This document shows, piece after piece, positions 2,419-13,247 of a stretch of DNA of 64,000 nt (its first letter is position 1; each line of letters opens with the position of its first letter). The notes beneath the pieces are model-generated. The model had not been told where the DNA came from. It made no database searches and saw only the letters and a list, made by a program, of their open reading frames with translations. Position numbers and translations under genes: made by a program. The stretch covers positions 43,862 through 107,861 of the forward strand of contig CAXXFH010000006.1 in assembly GCA_963677085.2 (NCBI GenBank). Reading direction: 5' to 3'. This DNA is from Thermoguttaceae bacterium. Lineage in GTDB: Bacteria > Planctomycetota > Planctomycetia > Pirellulales > Thermoguttaceae.

Positions 2419-3915
2419 ATGCACGTTGTTCTCTGGGATACGAACCAACTCGATGCTTCCAAAGACTTTGCCGGAGGATTCGGCGTCGGAAAATACCCCG
2501 GCCACGGCGGCGTACGGGGGAAGCTCATTCGCTGGTTCTACACCCGGGATCGACGTCCCGTGGCCCTGCTGTTTGCCCATCTCGCGGCCGCGTTCAACCG
2601 CCTGGGCCATCGGGTGGAGTATGCTGTCGACCGCGTGCCTCGCGAGGCCGACATGGTGATTTTCTCCCCGTCGCTGATCACCCTCGACCTGGAAAAGCGG
2701 CGGATGGCCGAGGTGCTCAAGCGGCTTCCCGGCGTGCGGGTGCTGGTCGTCGGGCTGGTGGCATCCGTCATGCCCGAGGCCTTCGAAGGTCTCGACGTCA
2801 CCGTAGTCAAGGGCGAGGCCGAGCAGCTCTTCTGGCGACTGGACGAGGTGCTGGCACGGCCCGGTACCGCCGTGCAGCTCGGCACGATCGAAGACCTCGA
2901 CCGCCTGCCGCTGCCCGACTGGTCGCCGTTTGCGCCGAAAAATTTCCGTATCGGTTACGATTTCTGGAAGTTTCCCACCGCGTTGATCCAAGCCAGCCGC
3001 GGTTGCACGTTTCACTGCAACTATTGTCCCTACATCGTTCTCGAAAACGCCACGCGGATGCGCAGCCCCGAGGCCGTGGTCGATGAAATCCACCATGGCA
3101 TTCGCCACTGGGGTTTTCGATCGTTCAAGTTCCGCGATCCGCTGTTCGGGCTGAAGCGTCCGTTGGTCTACGAACTGGCCGAACGCATCGGCCGGTTGCC
3201 GCGGAAGATTCAGTTTTCGATCGAAACACGCATTGAACTCGTTCCGCCCGAGATCTTGCGCCTGCTGAAACGCGTCGGGCTGACGAGCATTACCGTGGGT
3301 ATCGAATCGCCCAACGACGAGATGCTCAAGCGCTACCACCGGGCGCCGGTCCACGACGACAAACAACGCGAGTTCGTCGACACGTGCCGCCAATTGGGCA
3401 TTCGTACGGTGGCCGGGTTTCTCATCGGTTTTCCCGAAGACACGGGCCGTTCGATTCGCCGGGTGCTCGATTACGCCAAGCTGGTCAACCCGACGTTTGC
3501 CAACTTCAACGTCGTCACACCTTACCCGGGCACGGCCTTCTACGACGAAGTCCACGACCAGATCGCCGACCACGATTTGAGCCACTACACGGTTTACACG
3601 CCGGTGATGAAGTACGAAAACCTCAGCGGCGAGCAGATGCAAGAGTGGCACGCGAAGTGTTTTCGGCAGTTTTACTTCCGTTTCCCGTATCTGCGCGACA
3701 ATGCCCACCTCCTCTGGCCCGTATTGCGGCGGTTGGGCGTGGGGCGAGGCGGCCGCACCGCGTCGTCGCCGGAAGCCCTCGGCCAGTCGGCCCACGACGG
3801 AGTGCCCAAGCCACTCAGCGGCCAAGAGCTTCTGCGCAAAAAGGGTCTGCGGACCGACGGCCCCCATCTGCAACCCGGTTCCCGCGACCAGGCCGAAAAC
3901 CGCCGGACGGGGTGA
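2419..3915 (+). CDS. B12-binding-domain radical SAM enzyme (class B; HpnJ-like)
   Basis: CxxxCxxC motif (RGCTFHCNYCPY). The N-terminal Rossmann-like B12-binding region is followed by a radical SAM core (SITVGIESPNDEML, GFLIGFPEDT). Confidence 0.85.
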   Translation: MHVVLWDTNQLDASKDFAGGFGVGKYPGHGGVRGKLIRWFYTRDRRPVALLFAHLAAAFNRLGHRVEYAVDRVPREADMVIFSPSLITLDLEKRRMAEVLKRLPGVRVLVVGLVASVMPEAFEGLDVTVVKGEAEQLFWRLDEVLARPGTAVQLGTIEDLDRLPLPDWSPFAPKNFRIGYDFWKFPTALIQASRGCTFHCNYCPYIVLENATRMRSPEAVVDEIHHGIRHWGFRSFKFRDPLFGLKRPLVYELAERIGRLPRKIQFSIETRIELVPPEILRLLKRVGLTSITVGIESPNDEMLKRYHRAPVHDDKQREFVDTCRQLGIRTVAGFLIGFPEDTGRSIRRVLDYAKLVNPTFANFNVVTPYPGTAFYDEVHDQIADHDLSHYTVYTPVMKYENLSGEQMQEWHAKCFRQFYFRFPYLRDNAHLLWPVLRRLGVGRGGRTASSPEALGQSAHDGVPKPLSGQELLRKKGLRTDGPHLQPGSRDQAENRRTG

Positions 3916-4171
3916 GCCTGTCCGACAGCGGCAGACCGCAAAGCGGCCGTTGCCCGTCAAAGCCAACTCAACACGTCGCGCCGTCCGGCATAACCAGCAC
4001 AAGCTGGCCGTACTTCACGCCGAATAGGGTGGTACGCTAAGTGGGGGTTTCACGCCACTGGCCGCGTGTCGCTCCTCTCTTGTTCGGCTGCCATCCTCTC
4101 ACCGGCCTCTCGGTTTTCTCGCCCCTTCGGATCGATCGACAAATAACCTGCCGATTCGCCGGGCCGTGCGT

Positions 4172-4230
4172 CGCGACGGCCCTCGGGTTTTGCCTTGGAA
4201 AACGGTAAGTCGTTTTTCGGGCCGTCCTTA
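4172..4230. repeat. Hairpin repeat family E (copy 2)
   Basis: cgcgacggccctcgggttttgccttggaaaacggtaagtcgtttttcgggccgtcctta matches 731-795. Confidence 0.6.
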
Positions 4231-4412
4231 CCATCCGATGGCCGCTTCGTGTTTGCCTGGCCCCGATTCCTGAACTAGAGTTTCGATGGCAAGTTGCGAA
4301 GTTGTCGTCGGGGCACAGCTCATCAGAGGCTCCCCCCCCCGACCATGGTAGGATCCACGTCGTTTCCCACTGAAAACACACTCCTCGCACAAGCCGTGTT
4401 TCCTCTTCCTCC

Positions 4413-5558
4413 GTGTTGGTCGTTTACGGGATTGCCGTGTCAGCCGATCTGTCAACACAACTTGCTGGTTGGAACGATGTCCGGCACACGCTCGATGAAA
4501 TTCGGGCGTGCCAAGGCGAATACGATTCGTTCTTCTCCGGCGTGTTCGATCACCTGCAATCCCTTTCGGGCGATCTCTCGCAACACAAGTCGCACTGGGT
4601 GGCCCAACGCCATCAGCAGGCGGCCTCGATGGTTGAGCAGTCGCAGTCGGTCGCCCAGCAGAGCGACGATCGCTGGGAACGATTGCTCGAGGAAACCCGA
4701 TCGCAGCACGCCGAGATGTGCGACGCGCAAAAGGTCGTGCGCCAGCAGGTCGAACGTCTAGCCGCCATCGCCGCCGAGTTGGCCGAGGCCCACCGCCAGG
4801 ACGCCGAGCAGGGCAGGTCCGGCCACGACAGTGCCAACCACGACAGCGCCTCGGAGGAATCGTTGCGGCAATTGCTCGACGAGTTTCGCCAGCAGCAACA
4901 ACAATGGCGCAAGTTACACGAGCAGGCCGCCTCGAACACAACCGAGGCTTTCGGCCAGGAGCTGGCGGAAGTTCGCCGTGAACTCGCCGCCGCGCAACAG
5001 GCGCTACTCGAACGTTTCGAACAGCTTCAAGCGGCCCAGGCCAAAACAACCGGCAAACCGGCCGCCGCTTCGGCGATCGACACCGAACTACGCAAACGTC
5101 TCGACGAAATCCATCGCCTGCAACTCGAGTGGTCGCAGTCGGCTCCCGCAGCCGCGGCCGACGACGATCCCCTACGACAGCAACTTCAGGAGATGACCAC
5201 CCAGCAGGCGGCCTTAGATCAAGAACGGGCGTCGCTGGAAATCGAGTTGGAGTCGGTCCGTGGCCGAGCAGCCGAACTGGCCGAGTCGTTGGCCGATGAG
5301 AAACGCCAAACGCGTCGCCACCAAGAAGAATTCGCCGAAGAACTTAAACGCATGCGCGGGCTGTTGGAACTGATGTCGTATCGGATCAGCGAAACCGCGC
5401 CGGCCCCGGCTACACCCGTCCAAGCAACCCCGACCACGGCAGGCGCCGCTGCGGGTACTACGGCCGACAACGGTGCCGATCCAGTACTCGACTCCGTGAT
5501 GGCGCAGTTCGAGATGCTCCAACGCGATCTGGCCCGACGCCGCAATACCAAGGGATGA
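4413..5558 (+). CDS. Hypothetical Gln/Glu/Ala-rich coiled-coil protein
   Basis: Long ORF with heptad-like charged low-complexity sequence (QQLQEMTTQQAALDQERASLEIELESVRGRAAELAESLADEKRQ). The start is uncertain (GTG at 4413; the first in-frame ATG is about 70 codons in). No recognisable catalytic motif. Confidence 0.5.
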   Translation: MLVVYGIAVSADLSTQLAGWNDVRHTLDEIRACQGEYDSFFSGVFDHLQSLSGDLSQHKSHWVAQRHQQAASMVEQSQSVAQQSDDRWERLLEETRSQHAEMCDAQKVVRQQVERLAAIAAELAEAHRQDAEQGRSGHDSANHDSASEESLRQLLDEFRQQQQQWRKLHEQAASNTTEAFGQELAEVRRELAAAQQALLERFEQLQAAQAKTTGKPAAASAIDTELRKRLDEIHRLQLEWSQSAPAAAADDDPLRQQLQEMTTQQAALDQERASLEIELESVRGRAAELAESLADEKRQTRRHQEEFAEELKRMRGLLELMSYRISETAPAPATPVQATPTTAGAAAGTTADNGADPVLDSVMAQFEMLQRDLARRRNTKG

Positions 5559-5771
5559 CCGGAAACACAACGGGAGAATGCTATAAACAATAGGGTAGCC
5601 GTTCATGGCCGTTGTTTTTTTCGACAACTATTGGGGCCTGCATTGCTTGCGGAACGAGGGCGACCAACGGGAGCCCGGTTCGCGGGGACAAAACGCAACG
5701 AAATGTTCCACAATTAACCTCGGAATCAATAATAGCATAGCGCACCTTCAATTCACACATCGGAGAAGACC

Positions 5772-7139
5772 ATGGGCTCACGTTGCCGCATCGTGGTCCT
5801 GAGTACGATTCTGTTATTCAGCCTGATTAATCTCGGTATTGGCTGCTGGTACGTTCAACCGATTTTGGCGGCGTCCGGGGCAATGGGATGTTGCTACCTG
5901 GCCTTGCGCGTGGCGCGGCTCAGACGCACTTCGTTGGGCATCAACCAATCCCAAACGTCGGACGATTCGGCGACTTCGTCCCCGACGGTGGTTCGACCTG
6001 CCCAGCGCGAACCGGTCGATCCCAACGATACCGAGGCGTTGGTCAATCAGTTGCTCGAGCAGGGCCGCTACGCGCTGCTGCTGCGTCCACAAATCGCCAA
6101 CACGCTGGACGATGTTCGTTTCGGCCGGGTGCTGGACGCCCTGCAAGACGGTGCCGCCCTGGTGCCGGAGGGCGAAGTCGTGTTGGGCGGCGTCGACGCC
6201 GCATTGGACGACGGCCACCTCACACCCGACGAGATAATCGCTACCCAGGGACGCGTGGTGAAAGTCCGAGGGCTTTTTCTCGACCGCTACCCGGTGACGA
6301 ACGTCCAGTATTACGAATTCGTGGCCGCCGGAGGTTACCAGCAGATGTCGCTTTGGGACAAGGGGATTTGGCCGGCAGTTCTCGACATGGTCGACAGCAC
6401 CGGCGTACCAGGTCCGAAGTACTGGCAATATGGCTGCTTTGCCCCCGGCCGGGAGCAACACCCCGTGGTAGGAGTGAGTTGGTACGAGGCCTGTGCCTAC
6501 GCCCGATGGGTCGGCAAGCGGCTGCCCACCGACGCGGAATGGGTAAAAGCCGGCAGTTGGCCGGTCACCCTTTCCGAAACCAACCGGTCGCAACGGCGCT
6601 ATCCGTGGGGCGACACCATGGATCGTCGCAAAGCCAACCTCTGGGGCTCGGGCACCGATGATACCGTGCCGGTGCAGGAATATGCCGACGGCGGCAGTGT
6701 GGGTGGTGTTTCCCAACTAATCGGAAACGTCTGGGAATGGACCTCGAACAACTTCTCGCCCGTCGACCCGTATGGCAACCATTATCAAGTCGGTAATCCG
6801 ATGAAAAGTATCCGCGGAGGGGCCTTCGACACCTATTTCGATAACCAAGCCACCTGCCAATTTCAAAGTGGAGAAAACCCGTTGAGTCGCCGTCACAATA
6901 TTGGCTTCCGTTGCGCGGTGGGTGTGTGCGACTTGCTGTTGGCGCAAAGTGGACGGCCGGCAGACGTGTCGGCAAACGTTGACACTCCGCCCGACGCCAG
7001 CGTTCCCTCCGACTCGAAGGCCCCCTCGGACACGGCCGAGGTGCAAGCCGACGTGGCAATCGCGCCGGCCGACACCACGGCAGCCGACATCACGGCGGCC
7101 GATGCCCAGGTTTCCAAGTCTGAAGAGGTGCCCGCATGA
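5772..7139 (+). CDS. Membrane-anchored FGE-sulfatase (SUMF1/EgtB/PvdO-type) domain protein with low-complexity C-terminal tail
   Basis: GGAGAAG RBS lies 4 nt upstream of the ATG. There are two N-terminal hydrophobic helices. FGE-domain hallmarks are LDRYPVTNVQYYEFV, HPVVGVSWYEACAYARWVGKRLPTDAEW, YPWGD, GNVWEWT, RGGAF and NIGFRC. Confidence 0.85.
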   Translation: MGSRCRIVVLSTILLFSLINLGIGCWYVQPILAASGAMGCCYLALRVARLRRTSLGINQSQTSDDSATSSPTVVRPAQREPVDPNDTEALVNQLLEQGRYALLLRPQIANTLDDVRFGRVLDALQDGAALVPEGEVVLGGVDAALDDGHLTPDEIIATQGRVVKVRGLFLDRYPVTNVQYYEFVAAGGYQQMSLWDKGIWPAVLDMVDSTGVPGPKYWQYGCFAPGREQHPVVGVSWYEACAYARWVGKRLPTDAEWVKAGSWPVTLSETNRSQRRYPWGDTMDRRKANLWGSGTDDTVPVQEYADGGSVGGVSQLIGNVWEWTSNNFSPVDPYGNHYQVGNPMKSIRGGAFDTYFDNQATCQFQSGENPLSRRHNIGFRCAVGVCDLLLAQSGRPADVSANVDTPPDASVPSDSKAPSDTAEVQADVAIAPADTTAADITAADAQVSKSEEVPA

Positions 7140-8095
7140 CAAAAAGCATGATTCAACCGCTGGAGTCGTGTCGGCTGATCCAATATGCGGTGCCGGTACC
7201 GTGTCACATTTGCGGGACCGACAACACGCTGGATTCCGAGTTTTGCAACCACTGTTTTGCGCCCATGGCGCTGGCCCATCAATCGTGCGGTCGAAAGACG
7301 CAACCCCAGATGTTGGCCGCGTTGGGAGCCAGCGGCGCGGGGAAAACGGTTTACTTGGGCATGCTGATCGACATGCTTTCGCGGCAGCCCGAACGTATGC
7401 AACTGCTCGCCCGGGGAGCGTTTTCCATCACCCTGCAACAGACCACGCTGGCGGCCTTGTCGCGCTGCGAATTTCCGCAGAAGACCCCCAACGAACCCGA
7501 CCGTTGGAATTGGGTACACTGCCAGATTCGCCGTCGCCAGCAACGTCAACCGTTGGAATTGATTATGCCCGACATGGCCGGCGAGGCCCTGTTGGAAGAG
7601 GTCGACCATCCGCACACGTTCCGTGTCGTGCGATCGTTTCTGCAAAAGTGTACCGGCGCGCTGGTGCTGATCGATACCATGCGGTTGGAGGAATCCTCGC
7701 AGGATCAGGACTATTTCACTCTGAAACTGTTGACCTACCTGAACGAACTGGACAACGACGACTCGGACGACACCCGCTGGCAGAAGTCGCTTTCCTGGAA
7801 GAACCGGCCGGTGGCGTTGGTCTTCAGCAAGGCCGACCACTCCGATCTTTGTTCGGACGATCCGGAGGGCTACGCCAAAACTCAAGCCCCGGCGTTGTGG
7901 CAGTTTTGCCAGGAACGGTTCCACCGCCATCGCTTCTTTGCCGCCAGTGTAGCCGGGACGTGCGTTTACCGCGAGTCGTTGACCGAAGGGCGCATGCAGG
8001 TGCCGCTGCGGATCGAGCCGCAAGGTGTCGTGGAGCCCTTCCAGTGGTTGCTCGAGGAACTCGACTCCCTTGCGGGAAAACGGCCGAAGCGTTGA
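7136..8095 (+). CDS. Zinc-ribbon + P-loop small GTPase-like protein
   Basis: The ATG overlaps the upstream stop (ATGA at 7136-7139). N-terminal CxxC...CxxC (CHICGTDNTLDSEFCNHC). Walker A GASGAGKT (nt 7325-7348), DxxG (MPDMAGE) and an NKxD-like motif (FSKAD). Confidence 0.8.
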   Translation: MTKSMIQPLESCRLIQYAVPVPCHICGTDNTLDSEFCNHCFAPMALAHQSCGRKTQPQMLAALGASGAGKTVYLGMLIDMLSRQPERMQLLARGAFSITLQQTTLAALSRCEFPQKTPNEPDRWNWVHCQIRRRQQRQPLELIMPDMAGEALLEEVDHPHTFRVVRSFLQKCTGALVLIDTMRLEESSQDQDYFTLKLLTYLNELDNDDSDDTRWQKSLSWKNRPVALVFSKADHSDLCSDDPEGYAKTQAPALWQFCQERFHRHRFFAASVAGTCVYRESLTEGRMQVPLRIEPQGVVEPFQWLLEELDSLAGKRPKR

Positions 8096-8237
8096 ATTTG
8101 CGTGACACGTCAGCTATTGACGGCTGCCTAGCCAATGAGCGGAAGGCGACCAGCGGGAGCTTGGATTTCCGGGCTATCGGTTTCCAGAAATGATCATTCC
8201 CAATGCGGACATCAATAAATGAAGAACGTGTGTAATG

Positions 8238-8447
8238 ACTCAAACTGAAAACAGAAGGAAGCCGCAGATGAACACAGATACACGCAGATGACGAAAACGA
8301 CTTGGAAACGTGGATTGTCTGGTCGATCACGCCGTGAAGGCGATGCTTTCCAAAAGCCGCTCCACGCCAGATAGTCCGTGCGATGCTATCTGCGTTCATT
8401 TGCGTCCATCTGCGGCTCCAATGTTGGAATCATTTTCAGTTTGAGTA
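8238..8447. repeat. Long imperfect hairpin repeat (family G; GCCGCAGATGAAC..CAGAT arms)
   Basis: Left arm actcaaactgaaaac...gccgcagatgaacacagatacacgcagatg (8238-8291) is complementary to right arm ctatctgcgttcatttgcgtccatctgcggc...ttttcagtttgagt (8387-8447). Confidence 0.6.
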
Positions 8448-8600
8448 ATAAGGGAAGAGGGAAAAGAAGCTGCCACACGTGTTTTTCCCTCTTTCTCTTT
8501 CCCATTTTTCCTTCTTACACCAAGGAGTGGGGAAACGTTTGAATTGACGACTTCCTGCTCCAGATGGCTGAATAGTTGCGAATTGCGGAAAAACCGGAAA
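8445..8600 (+). repeat. Dispersed repeat family F (copy A)
   Basis: gtaataagggaagagggaaaagaagc...ttttccctctttctctttccc...ttccttcttacaccaag...cagatggctgaatagttgcg is co-linear with 25011-25160. A sub-module also occurs at 42064-42155. Confidence 0.6.
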
Positions 8601-8843
8601 AACCGGCCCTGTCGCGCTTGCGTTTCGCCGCAAGGTGGGTCGGGAAAATTCCCTCGCATGGGGTTCGAAAATGCTAGAGTTGGGGAACATCCCACCCGTT
8701 TTCCCGCCATGTTTGCCTGAACTGTCCGCCGCGTTTGCCAAGCAACCTCCGGCATTCGCGATACTCCCCTAGCCATCGTCGGTTCCCTCGTCCAGGCGTG
8801 GGAACGCATTGCCCCTGCCGATAGAACACGAACCAGTCGACGC

Positions 8844-10355
8844 ATGTCACACATCGAACAAGCAGTATTCACCTCGGCGGAAACGGATCGTTCCTTAGGT
8901 TACCAAGTGGTAGGTCGGAGTCCCGGACTCCGCGAGGAAGACGCCCAGGCGTTGGCCATTTGGGGGCCTTCACACGACTCGCTGCTCGATTTGAGCCCCG
9001 AAGCGGAGAGCTACAACTTCCATCCACTGCCCAGCGGCGCGTTTTGTGTGTCGCGCACGACACCGGCCGGCTGGGAGTATAGCGGTCGCGGTGGTCATCG
9101 AGTTTACACTCAATGCCTGATCGTGCAGCCGGAACTCTTGGCCCGCTTCGCCAACAATCCGTTTGCCTTGCTTCGTGCCGCGCTGGCATCCGGGATGTTG
9201 GAGGTTCACGAACACGTACCGAGCCGTCTCGATCCACTGCAATTAAGCGGTCGCGCCTCACCGGTCGACCAATCGCTACTGGCCCGACTGGCCGCCAATC
9301 CAGGAAGCCAACGGATGGCCAATCTGGTGCAGGCCGCTTTGGACCTCATGCAAACCGACGCGGGCACCGCTCGATTGGCCGTAGCCGGTTCTCCTTCGGC
9401 CGCCCAACTGCTGGCCGGCCTGTTCAACTGCCTGCCGGTGGAAAGCCGCACGGCGTTTTCGTTTTGCACGGGCTTGAAGTATTCGTCGCGACGGCCGTTT
9501 CGGATTCAGGCCCTCTCCGACGATCCGGCCGAACGCCGCTGGGTGGCACATCAGCCGAACGTTACCGTGGTGGAATTGTACCACGATTCGCCCACCGAGC
9601 CGTTGCCCTGGGAAGGTTGGGCGCAACTGATCAATCGGGTGTTGGCCTCCGGACGAACCACGTTTCTGGCGACTCAACTCTCGAAGCGTCGTTTCGATCT
9701 CACGCCCGACGACTTGGCGGCCCTGGGTCTGCAATTGCTCGAGGATTTCGAGGCCTCGGCATTGCGTCACGACCATGGCGATTCAGACCTGACAGAGACG
9801 ACCTCCGACGAGGTGACTTCGGCCGAAAGCGATCTGGATCGGCCGTTTGTCGACCCGGTCGACATGCTCGCGGACCCCACCGACCTCAACACCCAGCCGA
9901 AAACGCTGGATACGACCGACGATACGGCGCGGCCGGGCGGGGCCTCACCCGACTATCAACAGGCCCATGCGGCGCATCAGCAGTTCGCGAAAAGCACCTC
10001 TTCGGCCATCCCATCGTCGGGCACCGGATCGTCGGCTAAAGCTCCATCGCGCGTGGTTGCCCCGTCGAAAAATTTAGGGACCGCCTCGCCGCAAGTGTTG
10101 GAAAAACTGGAGTTGCTCGACGACCTGGTCTACGAGGCGCTTAGCGGCCAAACCACGGCCTTGAATCGGCTTGAAGTGCTTTGGCCCGAGATTCGCAGCA
10201 AATTGGACGACGAGTTGCTTGCCGAGTCGCGCGAACAGTATTTGCAATACGCGTTGTCGATCTGGGAAAACTGCGTCAACGACTCAGGCGTTCGCGCCCC
10301 AGCGCGTGCCGTGCAAGCCCTCGACGTACTGTGCGTGCTGTTCGACGAAGTATAG
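8844..10355 (+). CDS. Hypothetical 503-aa protein; N-terminus resembles GTPase-associated protein 1 (GAP1-N-type) domains
   Basis: Long ORF with good coding appearance. N-terminus is MSHIEQAVFTSAETDRSLGYQVVGRSPGL. The middle is acidic and Ser/Thr-rich low complexity, and the C-terminal module is helical. The family assignment is from memory of the M..Q..YTS....G[FY]Q..A.SPG pattern and was not searched. Confidence 0.6.
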   Translation: MSHIEQAVFTSAETDRSLGYQVVGRSPGLREEDAQALAIWGPSHDSLLDLSPEAESYNFHPLPSGAFCVSRTTPAGWEYSGRGGHRVYTQCLIVQPELLARFANNPFALLRAALASGMLEVHEHVPSRLDPLQLSGRASPVDQSLLARLAANPGSQRMANLVQAALDLMQTDAGTARLAVAGSPSAAQLLAGLFNCLPVESRTAFSFCTGLKYSSRRPFRIQALSDDPAERRWVAHQPNVTVVELYHDSPTEPLPWEGWAQLINRVLASGRTTFLATQLSKRRFDLTPDDLAALGLQLLEDFEASALRHDHGDSDLTETTSDEVTSAESDLDRPFVDPVDMLADPTDLNTQPKTLDTTDDTARPGGASPDYQQAHAAHQQFAKSTSSAIPSSGTGSSAKAPSRVVAPSKNLGTASPQVLEKLELLDDLVYEALSGQTTALNRLEVLWPEIRSKLDDELLAESREQYLQYALSIWENCVNDSGVRAPARAVQALDVLCVLFDEV

Positions 10356-10379
10356 CCACGCTTCTGTTGTAGGCCATTT

Positions 10380-10538
10380 CACTGTGTAGGCTATGCTTCA
10401 GCATAGCGCGGCTCACGCCGCAACCAATTGGTGCTACCGCACCCACTTCCACTCGGTCCCAAGCTCCAGCTTGGGACCGCACATCCGCGAAGCATTGCTA
10501 GGGCTGTCGCGCTATGCTGAAGCATAGCCTACACAGTG
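10380..10538. mobile_element. MITE-like element with 31-bp perfect terminal inverted repeats
   Basis: cactgtgtaggctatgcttcagcatagcgcg (10380-10410) is the exact reverse complement of cgcgctatgctgaagcatagcctacacagtg (10508-10538). The 97-bp interior carries a family-C half site and a GGTCCCAAGCTCCAGCTTGGGACC hairpin. Confidence 0.6.
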
Positions 10539-10748
10539 GTGCTGGCAATGCACTCACGTCTCTCGCCCCTCGTCTCAACCTCGCCCCTCGTCTCAACCTC
10601 GCCCGCCAAATCTAACGCCTTTCTTGCAGATCGCTAACCCGGCGTTCATGGCCTTTGGCGATAATTCAGTTAGAGGACTTCGGGAAGACACTCGCTTTGG
10701 TGAAACCTTCTCCCGAAGCAGTCGACCACTCCGAGGACGATTCCCTTG

Positions 10749-13247
10749 ATGTACACGACCCAGAAGACGTCGAAGGCCGATCTTCACGTCCACAGCAAAC
10801 ACTCCGACCGGCCGAGCGAGTGGTTTCTTCGCCGCATCGGATCGCCCGAGTGTTTCGTCGAGCCGCTGGAAATCTACCATCGCGCACGACAGCGGAGGAT
10901 GGACTTCGTGACCATCTCCGATCACAACTGCATCCGCGGGGCGTTGGAAATCGCCCATCTGCCGGGCACATTCATCTCGAACGAGGTGACCACCTACTTC
11001 CCCGAGGACGGCTGCAAGCTCCACGTGCTGGTCAGCGGAATCACGGAAACCGAGTTCCGCGACATCCAGGAAAATCGCTCCAACGTTTACGACTTGCAGA
11101 AGTATCTTGTCGAGCAAGACATCATCCACAGCGTGGCCCATCCGCTGTTTCGCATCAACAGCCGGCTGACGATCGACCACGTGGAAAAGCTGCTCGTGCT
11201 GTTCAAGCGGTTCGAGGCGATCAACGGCACCCGCGACGTCCGAGCGGCCGAACTGGTCGACGCCATCTTCGGCCACCTCACGCCCGAGATGATTGAAGCG
11301 ATGGCCAATCGCCACGGTCTCGCACCGGTCGGTCCTGAACCTTGGGTAAAACACTTCACCGGCGGCAGCGACGACCACAGCGGAGCCTACACGGCCGCCG
11401 CCCATACGATGACGCCGCCGTGCGACGACGTCGACGAGTTCCTCGGTCATCTGCGCCGCGGCGAGCACGGGCCGGCCGGCACCTCGGGTGGCAGCGTGAT
11501 GATGGGACACTGCCTGTACCACATTGCTTACAGCTACTACAAAGACCGTTTCGTCCGCGGCACCGGCGACGGCAAACCCACCATCATCGGCGAGCTGTTC
11601 AAAAAACTGCTTCAACAGGCCGAGCAACAACGTCCGCCGGCCAGTCTGGGCCAACGGTTAAAGGACGCCGCGGTGAGTTTCGTTTGGGCGCGTCAGAAGA
11701 ATCGTCTCAGCGAAGTTGATCGGGAGTTGGTCGACGAGTTTTCCCAACTATTCAACGTCGAAGAACAGCGCGACGTGGCCTCGCCGCCGATGGACGACCG
11801 GCGCACGTTCTACACGGCTTGCCGCATCAGCCACGTATTGGGTTACAGCTTCCTGCGTCGGTTCGAGAAGTACGCCCGCCAGGGCCGGCTGATGGAAAGT
11901 TTGCAGACGGTGGCCTCCTTGGGGCCGGTCGCTCTGAGCATGGCTCCGTACTTGGCTGCGTTCTCCACCCAACACAAGGATGAGCCGTTTCTCCAGGCCG
12001 TGGCAGAACACTTTCCCACGGCGCACCACCTACGGCAAAAGAGCGATCGCAAGGCCTGGGTGACCGACACGTTTGCCGACGTCAACGGCGTGACGCGAAC
12101 CATTCACTCGTTGGCAGCCATGGCCAAGAAGACGGGCCGGAAGATGACCGTGGTAACCTGTCTCGACGAACTGCCGACCACGAAGCTCGACGTCAAGAAT
12201 TTCCGCCCGGTGGGTACCTTCCAGTTGCCGGAATACGAGTCGCTGCGGTTGGCCTTTCCCCCGTTTCTTGAGGTGATCGAGTATCTCGAACGGCAACGGT
12301 TCAGCGAGGTGATCATTTCCACACCCGGCCCTATGGGACTAACGGCCCTGGCCGCGGCACGCCTTTTGGGTTTGCGCACCACGGGCATCTACCACACCGA
12401 CTTCCCGCAGTTCGTCCGCTATCTGACGGGCGACGACGACATGGAGGAACTTACCTGGAAGTACATGCTGTGGTTCTACGAGCAAACCGACCGCATCCTG
12501 GCCCCCAGCGAGTATTATCGCAAGACGCTCGCTTACCGTGGCTTCGATCCCACCAAGCTGCAACTGATGGTTCGCGGCGTGGATACCGCGTGGTTCACGC
12601 TGGAGAAACGCGACCCGGCATTCTACCGTCGCTGGGGTCTCGACGATCGGCTGACATTCGTCTACGCGGGCCGTATCTCCTGCGAAAAGAACCTCCACCT
12701 GCTGGTCGACGCGTTCCGCTCGCTGATCGAACGCGACGTGACAGCCCAGTTGGCAATTGTGGGCGACGGCCCTTATGTGGAAGAACTTCAGAAGCAGTCT
12801 CAAGGGTTACCCGTCTTTTTCACGGGCTTTCTCGACGGCGAAGATCTGGCCACTGCCTATGCCAGCGCCGATGTGATGGTGTTTCCCTCGACCACCGACA
12901 CGTTTGGCAACGCCGTGCTCGAAGCCCAAGCGAGCGGACTGCCCGCGATCGTCGCCGACCGGGGCGGTCCTCCCGACATCGTCGGCCCACACGAATCGGG
13001 CCTGATCGTGAATCTCAACGAACCGAACGCGCTGGCCGATGCCATGCAACAGTTGGCATGCGACGAAACCATGCGGAACGAAATGGGACGGCGCGCGTTG
13101 CGCAACGCGGCCGAACGTCGTTGGGAAGTGGTGCTCGAAGAATTCTGGAACGGCGCGGAGAACGATCCCGCCACATCCGAACGGCTCGTCTATCGTCAGC
13201 CGAACGAGCACGTCACGGCGGGCCTGGTTTCTCTCGATACCGCCTAG
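10749..13247 (+). CDS. PHP-domain phosphoesterase fused to GT4 (group 1) glycosyltransferase
   Basis: N-terminus ADLHVHSKHSDRPSEW ... TISDHN ... HPLF is the PHP metal-binding pattern. C-terminus VYAGRISCEKNLHLL ... VFPSTTDTFGNAVLEAQASGLPAIVADRGGPPDIV is the GT4 E-x7-E region. Confidence 0.85.
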   Translation: MYTTQKTSKADLHVHSKHSDRPSEWFLRRIGSPECFVEPLEIYHRARQRRMDFVTISDHNCIRGALEIAHLPGTFISNEVTTYFPEDGCKLHVLVSGITETEFRDIQENRSNVYDLQKYLVEQDIIHSVAHPLFRINSRLTIDHVEKLLVLFKRFEAINGTRDVRAAELVDAIFGHLTPEMIEAMANRHGLAPVGPEPWVKHFTGGSDDHSGAYTAAAHTMTPPCDDVDEFLGHLRRGEHGPAGTSGGSVMMGHCLYHIAYSYYKDRFVRGTGDGKPTIIGELFKKLLQQAEQQRPPASLGQRLKDAAVSFVWARQKNRLSEVDRELVDEFSQLFNVEEQRDVASPPMDDRRTFYTACRISHVLGYSFLRRFEKYARQGRLMESLQTVASLGPVALSMAPYLAAFSTQHKDEPFLQAVAEHFPTAHHLRQKSDRKAWVTDTFADVNGVTRTIHSLAAMAKKTGRKMTVVTCLDELPTTKLDVKNFRPVGTFQLPEYESLRLAFPPFLEVIEYLERQRFSEVIISTPGPMGLTALAAARLLGLRTTGIYHTDFPQFVRYLTGDDDMEELTWKYMLWFYEQTDRILAPSEYYRKTLAYRGFDPTKLQLMVRGVDTAWFTLEKRDPAFYRRWGLDDRLTFVYAGRISCEKNLHLLVDAFRSLIERDVTAQLAIVGDGPYVEELQKQSQGLPVFFTGFLDGEDLATAYASADVMVFPSTTDTFGNAVLEAQASGLPAIVADRGGPPDIVGPHESGLIVNLNEPNALADAMQQLACDETMRNEMGRRALRNAAERRWEVVLEEFWNGAENDPATSERLVYRQPNEHVTAGLVSLDTA

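Follow-up and report, generated by a model that had tools for sequence, protein, structure and literature searches.

A zinc-ribbon DO-GTPase and its FGE-like partner in a four-gene planctomycete cassette: a candidate vertically inherited cellular switch

The locus and its genes

This work deals with a small GTPase gene and the genes surrounding it in a stretch of 64,000 nucleotides from a Thermoguttaceae bacterium (assembly GCA_963677085.2, contig CAXXFH010000006.1, positions 43,862 to 107,861 of the forward strand), which is referred to as the window and to which coordinates refer unless a locus is named. The GTPase is part of a cassette of four genes on the same strand, encoding in this order a coiled-coil protein, an FGE-like protein, the GTPase and a GAP1 protein (Table 1). 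Sequence, predicted structure and comparison with related loci assign the GTPase to the published DO-GTPase family and suggest, with a probability of about 0.6, that it belongs to an FGS-type cassette acting as a vertically inherited, single-copy cellular switch under purifying selection and not as a fast-diversifying immune module.

A preliminary description of the window, made from the sequence alone, had reported the open reading frame (ORF) of the GTPase, its ATGA overlap with the FGE-like gene, the nucleotide-binding motifs, the acidic insert and two CxxC pairs, and all of these were found at the expected positions. Moreover, a Shine-Dalgarno-like word, GAAGAGG, is located 6 nt 5' of the GTPase ATG.

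Table 1. Features of the cassette in the window (aa, amino acids).
Feature	Position	Strand	Basis or remark
First cassette gene: coiled-coil protein of 381 aa with uncertain start codon	4413..5558	+	coiled-coil; locus conservation
Membrane-anchored FGE-like (FGS, C-type-lectin-fold) protein, 455 aa	5772..7139	+	PF03781, E 9e-42
FGE-sulfatase domain, aa 130-382	6159..6917	+	PF03781
ATGA stop/start overlap of FGE-like gene and GTPase gene	7136..7139	+	ATG at 7136 overlapping the terminal TGA of ORF 5772..7139
GTPase gene	7136..8095	+	ORF of 319 aa; zinc ribbon and TRAFAC GTPase domain
Zinc ribbon C23-x2-C26-x10-C37-x2-C40	7202..7255	+	Cys conservation, model, weak DZR/DZR_2 Pfam matches
G1 / P-loop GASGAGKT, aa 64-71	7325..7348	+	sequence and homologue conservation
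T117, candidate switch-I (G2) Thr, inside conserved FPxKTPNEPDRWNWVHCQ	7484..7486	+	homologue conservation and model
G3 / Walker B LIMPDMAGE, aa 142-150 (DxxG, then family Glu)	7559..7585	+	homologue conservation
Acidic insert NELDNDDSDDTRW, aa 203-215	7742..7780	+	variable loop in alignment and model
G4 VFSKAD, aa 229-234	7820..7837	+	homologue conservation; family consensus TKAD
Family-specific C-terminal motif PLRIEPQGVVEPFQWL, aa 290-305	8003..8050	+	alignment; beta-hairpin region
Repeat-filled spacer between GTPase and GAP1, 748 bp	8096..8843		dispersed repeats of own genome
GAP1, 503 aa	8844..10355	+	PF20013 (GAP1-N2), E 3.6e-14; PF20014 (GAP1-M), E 6.5e-5

The GTPase is a member of the DO-GTPase family

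The GTPase matches the Pfam models PF19975 (DO-GTPase1) with 59.4 bits and PF19993 (DO-GTPase2) with 43.1 bits, the gathering cut-off being 27 bits for both, and both DO-GTPase domains are precomputed on all 120 homologues among the matches listed. None of the Pfam models for Ras, Arf and Roc matches the GTPase at E 0.1 or better, and NCBIfam has no specific entry for either the GTPase or GAP1. The DO-GTPase family and the GAP1-N2 "GTPase-centric" systems were named by Kaur and colleagues (Kaur, Burroughs, Iyer and Aravind, 2020, eLife 9:e52696; PMC7159879). This paper introduced the DO-GTPases ("double-GTPases") as a family new to the TRAFAC class, with a Walker B Glu as hallmark; 60% of the members bear one or two zinc ribbons at the N-terminus. 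The GAP1 gene usually follows that of the DO-GTPase, and planctomycete systems of the family were noted to contain FGS (FGE-like) domains (Kaur et al., 2020; PMC7159879). The literature searched contained no experimental work on the family, which is known from this one comparative-genomics paper; the family name turned up in three further papers, and the one of these that was checked refers to it in passing.

Judged by its sequence and predicted structure, the ORF at 7136-8095 is a single-domain DO-GTPase of the TRAFAC class with one N-terminal Cys4 ribbon and a DxxGE Walker B motif. As the PF19975 and PF19993 matches are combined with a GAP1-N2/GAP1-M protein encoded downstream, the cassette can be assigned to the GAP1-N2 systems of Kaur et al. 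(2020; PMC7159879) in their planctomycete "FGS" variant. The reading of the protein as a GTPase in the preliminary description is supported, but it had been overlooked there that the protein belongs to an already named family with a published FGS link, and the N-terminal zinc ribbon, which had been regarded as unusual, is common in this family.

The cassette shares with the published systems the Pfam models above cut-off, a TRAFAC GTPase with DxxGE motif and N-terminal zinc ribbon, the downstream GAP1, a membrane-linked component, the FGS domain in planctomycetes and the existence of GTPase-GAP1 fusions. However, it also differs from them in several respects. The "double" arrangement of two paralogous GTPase genes, which is present in 38% of the published systems and is not obligatory (Kaur et al., 2020; PMC7159879), is replaced by a single GTPase gene with one match in its own genome, and there is one zinc ribbon in contrast to the "usually two" of the N2 systems. 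Furthermore, the cassette is headed by a coiled-coil gene and has neither a component with rapidly evolving FNIII repeats nor a variable effector: Pfam gave no FNIII match in any gene of the cassette or in the pair of genes flanking it, and no other conserved neighbour was found beyond housekeeping genes. In place of effectors varying between close relatives, the hallmark of conflict systems, the same four genes recur across the families of the order. Unlike the published systems, its components are constant, single-copy and vertically inherited within one order under purifying selection, and one lineage retains only a 118-aa GAP1-C protein.

Hence, the named and published family, its zinc ribbon and its FGE-like partner are already known (Kaur et al., 2020; PMC7159879), and the GTPase of the window is an ordinary member. 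Added here are the constant four-gene architecture, the fusions, the vertical and order-restricted inheritance under purifying selection, the lineage with GAP1-C only and the predicted longin-like fold of GAP1.

Conservation of the nucleotide-binding motifs and the zinc ribbon

Residue conservation was counted over 155 full-length GTPase homologues and shows that the motifs are not chance occurrences. The four Cys residues of the zinc ribbon are kept in 153-154 of these, while a lack of such conservation had been named in the preliminary description as speaking against its reading, and conservation of only one CxxC...CxxC unit indicates a single zinc ribbon, with weak double-zinc-ribbon Pfam matches (DZR/DZR_2) spanning residues 16-57. 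In the P-loop, G64 is invariant (155/155), followed by G69 (154/155), K70 (153/155) and T71 (150/155). T117, a Thr in 149/155 homologues, is located in the predicted model in the loop ahead of the antiparallel strand 125-133 and is a candidate for the G2 residue. The Walker B residues D146 and G149 are retained in 154/155 and 152/155 sequences, respectively, and position 150 is occupied by the family Glu in 112/155 and by Asp in 26/155. Towards the C-terminus the alignment displays a shared family motif, PLR.EP.G..PF.WL.

The G4 motif VFSKAD had been described as degenerate due to its Ser in place of Asn or Thr, with a possible shift of the nucleotide preference as a consequence. A rival reading is that the protein is an ATPase or a dead NTPase, in which the Ser preceding KxD relaxes or abolishes guanine specificity. 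Across the homologues the first residue of the motif is a Thr in 112/155 and a Ser in 33/155, followed by K232 (149/155), Ala (116/155) and D234 (147/155). The consensus TKAD shows that the G4 motif of the family is the canonical [N/T]KxD and that the Ser in the window is a conservative minority variant. With G4 canonical for DO-GTPases, the motif is not degenerate and an altered nucleotide preference is unlikely; together with the intact G1 motif, switch-I Thr and DxxG, and with the nearly invariant Lys and Asp, this makes an ATPase or an inactive protein very improbable.

The acidic insert is present, as had been noted, yet the homologues differ in both the length and the sequence of the loop that contains it, in which the protein of the window carries approximately eight additional residues as a lineage-specific insertion. 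This loop is also predicted with low confidence, i.e., a predicted local distance difference test (pLDDT) score of 65-81 in the structural model.

The predicted fold places the GTPase among the TRAFAC GTPases

An AlphaFold2 model of the GTPase, a predicted structure built on an alignment of 33 sequences, reached a pLDDT of 90.2 and a predicted template modelling score (pTM) of 0.88, and the zinc-ribbon blocks, folded as short beta-strands, have pLDDT values of 91-93. The beta2-beta3 hairpin (125-133, 140-146) is seen around the Walker B strand; alpha1 is followed by an additional strand-helix insertion, and the last helix is preceded by a beta-hairpin extension.

In a Foldseek search of the model against the PDB the best match was YcjX with E 1.3e-6 and a template modelling (TM) score for the query (TMq) of 0.47. 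Further matches comprised Rab38, Rab4, Rab11, Rab8, Arl6, Arl1, MglA, eEFSec, EF-Tu, Ras and Gtr1, all of which are TRAFAC GTPases, and no ABC or kinase fold was present among the top 50 matches. The placement as a TRAFAC GTPase, for which the preliminary description had named a kinase or an ABC-like fold as the outcomes speaking against it, is therefore upheld. When the profile of the GTPase alignment was searched against PDB sequences, the only matches were to ABC ATPases and FtsY (best E 0.007) and were confined to the P-loop; they are uninformative on class, and the fold search overrides them.

YcjX (PDB 6nz4, 6nz5, 6nz6) is the nearest solved structure and, similarly, a bacterial TRAFAC GTPase with insertions in a Ras-like core. 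However, it is 450-470 aa long, shares only 11-13% identity with the GTPase, has no zinc ribbon and gives no Pfam cross-match; the likeness is one of fold. The same holds true for the Ras superfamily (Ras/Rab/Arf/MglA), which the GTPase resembles in fold only, with 11-16% identity and without Pfam membership.

Constant architecture of the cassette and coupling of the FGE-like gene to the GTPase gene

Related cassette loci were compared in 20 neighbourhoods of 13-17 kb from different genera and in 11 shorter loci. In the 20 neighbourhoods the genes follow one same-strand order, i.e., coiled-coil gene, FGE-like gene, GTPase and GAP1, and the order FGE-like gene, GTPase, GAP1 is kept in 31/31 related loci. 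All 20 neighbourhoods contain both the FGE-like gene and the GTPase, GAP1 is located downstream of the GTPase in 19/20 (20/21 loci), and the coiled-coil gene is found upstream on the same strand in 18/21 loci. The two genes flanking the cassette in the window, a radical-SAM gene and a GT4 gene, fall outside it by this neighbourhood comparison.

The FGE-like gene and the GTPase gene overlap by 4 nt in about 10 of the 20 loci and are separated by gaps of at most 13 nt in most of the others; one divergent lineage has 64-113 nt between them. Moreover, natural fusions exist. At locus L029 a single ORF of 687 aa (6851-8914) contains PF03781 together with PF19975/PF19993, and the database protein P0227 is a further FGE-GTPase fusion, while the database proteins P0164 and P0162 are fusions of the GTPase with GAP1-N2. 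Long open frames of some genomes were considered as additional fusions; those of L009 were not confirmed on checking, and the verified cases are L029 and the three database proteins. The recurrent overlaps and the fusions support a physical and stoichiometric coupling of the FGE-like protein and the GTPase. The preliminary description had proposed co-translation and stoichiometric coupling from the ATGA overlap of the window, and the tight coupling turns out to be a trait of the family. From the natural FGE-GTPase fusion a direct contact of both proteins is predicted.

A scan for promoters and terminators yielded nothing above shuffled expectation and predicted no terminator after the GTPase, and a search of Rfam over 3900-10800 gave no match.

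The FGE-like and coiled-coil partners

The FGE-like protein starts with a hydrophobic hairpin of two helices (about aa 7-47), continues with RLRR and then a conserved GRYALLLRPQ, and ends in a low-complexity acidic/Ala/Thr tail that reaches the GTPase start. Its homologues likewise open with two hydrophobic helices and a subsequent run of Arg/Lys. According to the positive-inside rule, and given its fusion to a cytoplasmic GTPase, the FGE-like domain would be placed in the cytoplasm. The protein is well conserved, with 43-60% identity across loci of the order.

The partner contains a full-length PF03781 domain and in this respect resembles the FGE-sulfatase superfamily (FGE/SUMF1, EgtB, OvsA, CalU17); the nearest solved relatives of its domain are the C-terminal domain of EgtB (E 6e-25, closest), OvsA, CalU17 and FGE. 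Compared to EgtB, it lacks the DinB-type iron domain. In contrast to FGE, it has an N-terminal hairpin anchor, is predicted to be cytoplasmic and is overlapped by or fused with a GTPase. FGE enzymes carry a catalytic pair of Cys residues after RGG[SA][FW], whereas the alignment of the FGE-like domain, RGGAFDTYF..QA.C, retains one conserved Cys only. A single Cys in place of the catalytic pair points to a binding domain, and the FGE-like domain is probably not an enzyme.

These features bear on the question whether the GTPase might help to mature the FGE-like protein or deliver a metal to it, in analogy to the G3E metallochaperones, with the Cys4 site handling the metal of the partner. The translational coupling or fusion with a protein of the FGE superfamily and the presence of a Cys4 site in the GTPase would suit such a role. 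However, the predicted fold is that of TRAFAC switch GTPases and not of SIMIBI G3E proteins, the FGE-like protein has neither the two-Cys motif of FGE nor the iron domain of EgtB, and the presence of a dedicated GAP1 and of the coiled-coil protein would find no explanation, rendering this role highly unlikely.

The coiled-coil protein belongs to no Pfam family and gave only weak matches to SMC/LmuB-type coiled-coils. At its C-terminus it has a conserved coiled-coil segment and the terminal helix DPVLDSVMAQFEMLQRDLARRR. The homologues range from 190 to 876 aa and have in common the last coiled-coil segment and the terminal helix DPVLDSVMAQFEMLQ+D..RRR (5400-5558 in the window); a low-complexity linker precedes this shared C-terminal segment.

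GAP1 and its predicted fold

GAP1 consists of the GAP1-N2 domain (aa 4-123), the alpha/beta GAP1-M domain (aa ~143-312), a disordered region (326-404) and a C-terminal four-helix GAP1-C domain. In its AlphaFold2 model (pLDDT 81.2) the secondary-structure elements of the N-terminal domain are arranged as beta-beta-alpha-beta-beta-beta-alpha-alpha, an order that matches the longin topology. A Foldseek search with this model retrieved folliculin (FLCN, 6nzd_H) as best match with E 7e-4, TagF (9t0n) with E 1.3e-3 and complexes of FNIP2 and FLCN, as well as the Lst4 longin with a probability of 0.94 and a Lokiarchaeal longin with a probability of 0.89, at low TM-scores of 0.15-0.43 throughout. The two-domain body of GAP1 aligns co-linearly with FLCN, FNIP2 and TagF. 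On this predicted model it is plausible that the N-terminal domain is longin-like, and the middle domain may tentatively be read as a DENN module. R82, located in the GWEYSGRGG loop between beta4 and beta5, is invariant, making it a candidate for a catalytic Arg. A literature search for a link between TagF and DENN found nothing, and longin or DENN are not mentioned by Kaur et al. (2020; PMC7159879).

The pairing of a small TRAFAC GTPase with a dedicated, adjacently encoded partner having a predicted longin-topology N-terminus resembles the pairs MglA-MglB, Rag/FLCN-FNIP and Rab/DENN. However, the likeness comes only from a predicted fold with weak statistics and finds no counterpart in sequence profiles, the catalytic Arg of GAP1 is only a candidate, and the GTPase does not belong to the Ras superfamily by Pfam.

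One family of the order has, 3' of the GTPase, a gene for a protein of 118-119 aa that comprises GAP1-C only (L021 9083-9442, L022 9084-9440, L023 7595-7951). Of five genomes of the divergent branch that were searched for a GAP1-N2 domain, four have none anywhere, and three of these belong to the four genomes representing the family with GAP1-C only; genome G011 has GAP1-N2 elsewhere, in a 908-aa frame at C1:2171207. The existence of this lineage marks the FGE-like/GTPase pair as the invariant core of the cassette.

Distribution, inheritance and selection

The GTPase is single-copy in its own genome. Within the order, which by the names of the homologues is apparently Pirellulales including Thermoguttaceae, the gene was found in 99 of 151 genomes and in 79 of the 119 of high quality, almost always as one copy, and the proteins share 55-67% identity across families. 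Outside the order, 300 genomes sampled across the phylum contained matches in just one other family, at about 28% identity. A single-sequence HMMER search over 1.8 billion cluster representatives matched only 282 clusters. Among the 20 listed high-quality genomes without the cassette, 17 have a size of at most 5.9 Mb.

In a maximum-likelihood tree of 29 GTPase sequences, which group by taxonomic family, the family label changes 14 times, the minimum being 11 and the mean after shuffling 21.9, with none of 200 shuffles as low. Furthermore, at 13 of 20 loci, drawn from several families, the cassette adjoins carA, which encodes the small subunit of carbamoyl-phosphate synthase; other neighbours are an aminotransferase gene, asnS, rpsP-trmD-rplS and similar housekeeping genes. 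The loci flanked by carA include L015, L016, L017, L019, L021, L023, L027, L029-L031 and L033; in the genome of the window the carA position is lost.

Ratios of non-synonymous to synonymous substitution rates (dN/dS) were computed on five pairs. For the closest pair, which alone is quoted as the synonymous rate is at or near saturation in all others, the GTPase gene has a value of 0.035, GAP1 of 0.05, the FGE-like gene of 0.13 and the coiled-coil gene of 0.12. By these sequence comparisons the GTPase is the most constrained gene of the four-gene cassette.

Cellular switch or conflict system

GAP1-N2 systems, including those with FGS domains in planctomycetes, have been classified as biological-conflict systems (Kaur et al., 2020; PMC7159879). 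Applied to the cassette of the window, the FGE-like protein would bind a molecule of an invader, GAP1 would relay the signal and the GTPase would set the threshold for an abortive or membrane-directed response. FGE/C-lectin folds act as binding domains in diversity-generating systems (Kaur et al., 2020; PMC7159879), and the presence of the cassette is patchy, about one third of the genomes of the order lacking it, both of which would be compatible with a conflict function. However, a variable effector is missing, and the order shows one constant set of four genes; the FGE-like domain displays good conservation and purifying selection; the cassette is single-copy, vertically inherited and often located beside housekeeping genes. 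In PADLOC neither the GTPase nor the FGE-like protein had a match, and those of the coiled-coil protein and GAP1 were all weak and non-cognate; an FNIII-repeat component is missing from the cassette and flanking genes. As judged from these comparisons, the evolutionary pattern is not that of a diversifying, horizontally mobile defence system, and an anti-invader function is a minority possibility, to be given perhaps one chance in four.

Vertical, single-copy and order-restricted inheritance, often next to carA, under purifying selection fits a lineage-specific cellular switch better than diversifying defence. This evolutionary behaviour, including the housekeeping neighbours, argues against attaching the label "defence" by default. 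Moreover, the planctomycete branch is unusually tractable for hypotheses, as it offers four constant genes, a natural fusion and a lineage without the N and M domains of GAP1.

Several points weigh against a cellular switch of this kind. The sole published reading of the DO-GTPase family is that of a biological-conflict system (Kaur et al., 2020; PMC7159879). The cassette is missing from approximately one third of the good genomes of the order and is thus dispensable. The dN/dS values are rough due to the high, near-saturated synonymous divergence. In the genome of the window the repeat-filled spacer of 748 bp makes co-transcription of GAP1 uncertain. That the GTPase binds and hydrolyses GTP, that the ribbon binds zinc and that any of the proteins contact one another is what we infer from sequences and predicted models. 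Finally, the longin/DENN likeness of GAP1 is weak, as the model behind it is a prediction and the Foldseek statistics are poor: the GAP1 profile had no match among PDB sequences, leaving no sequence link to longin or DENN, and Pfam, searched up to E 10 with 34 GAP1 homologues, contained no longin/DENN family apart from one NPR3 match with E 0.053.

A possible mechanism

For the cellular switch the following course of events can be envisaged. The GTPase would be made together with the FGE-like protein, as the overlap and the fusions suggest, and might bind to its cytoplasmic part, so that the N-terminal hairpin of the partner would tether the GTPase to the membrane. In line with its motifs and predicted fold, the GTPase would cycle between the GTP- and GDP-bound states, and GAP1 might set its nucleotide state via a predicted longin-like platform and a DENN-like alpha/beta domain. 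The output would be the assembly or release of a membrane-proximal complex including the coiled-coil protein.

Planctomycetes are noted for complex endomembranes and for division without FtsZ. A more far-reaching and rather doubtful proposal is that the cassette represents a non-immune, lineage-specific, membrane-tethered small-GTPase module with GAP1 as a bacterial longin and DENN-like regulator, which would correspond, and might even be related, to the eukaryotic pairs Rag/FLCN-FNIP or Rab/DENN. Such a module might control a membrane- or envelope-proximal process, in which the lectin-fold FGE-like protein would provide the membrane anchor or sense a ligand and the coiled-coil protein would form the output scaffold. 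If GAP1 were indeed longin/DENN-like, the module would bear on the origin of eukaryotic-type pairs of GTPases and their regulators.

The spacer and the flanking genes

In relatives the GTPase and GAP1 genes are spaced by about 30-150 bp compared to 748 bp in the window. The spacer contains an element of about 105 bp (about 8114-8219), of which the genome has approximately ten copies at 83-86% identity, and an element of about 210 bp with long inverted arms (about 8238-8449), present in at least 25 genome copies at 72-92% identity.

On the 5' side of the cassette a B12-binding radical-SAM protein is encoded at 2419-3915 (PF04055, weak PF02310), which is found near the cassette in just 2 of 20 loci. 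On the 3' side a protein of 833 aa is encoded at 10746-13247. Its C-terminal half contains GT4 glycosyltransferase domains, and Pfam reported glycosyltransferase domains only; its N-terminal ~230 aa start with HVHSKHSDRPSEW and appear PHP-like by eye.

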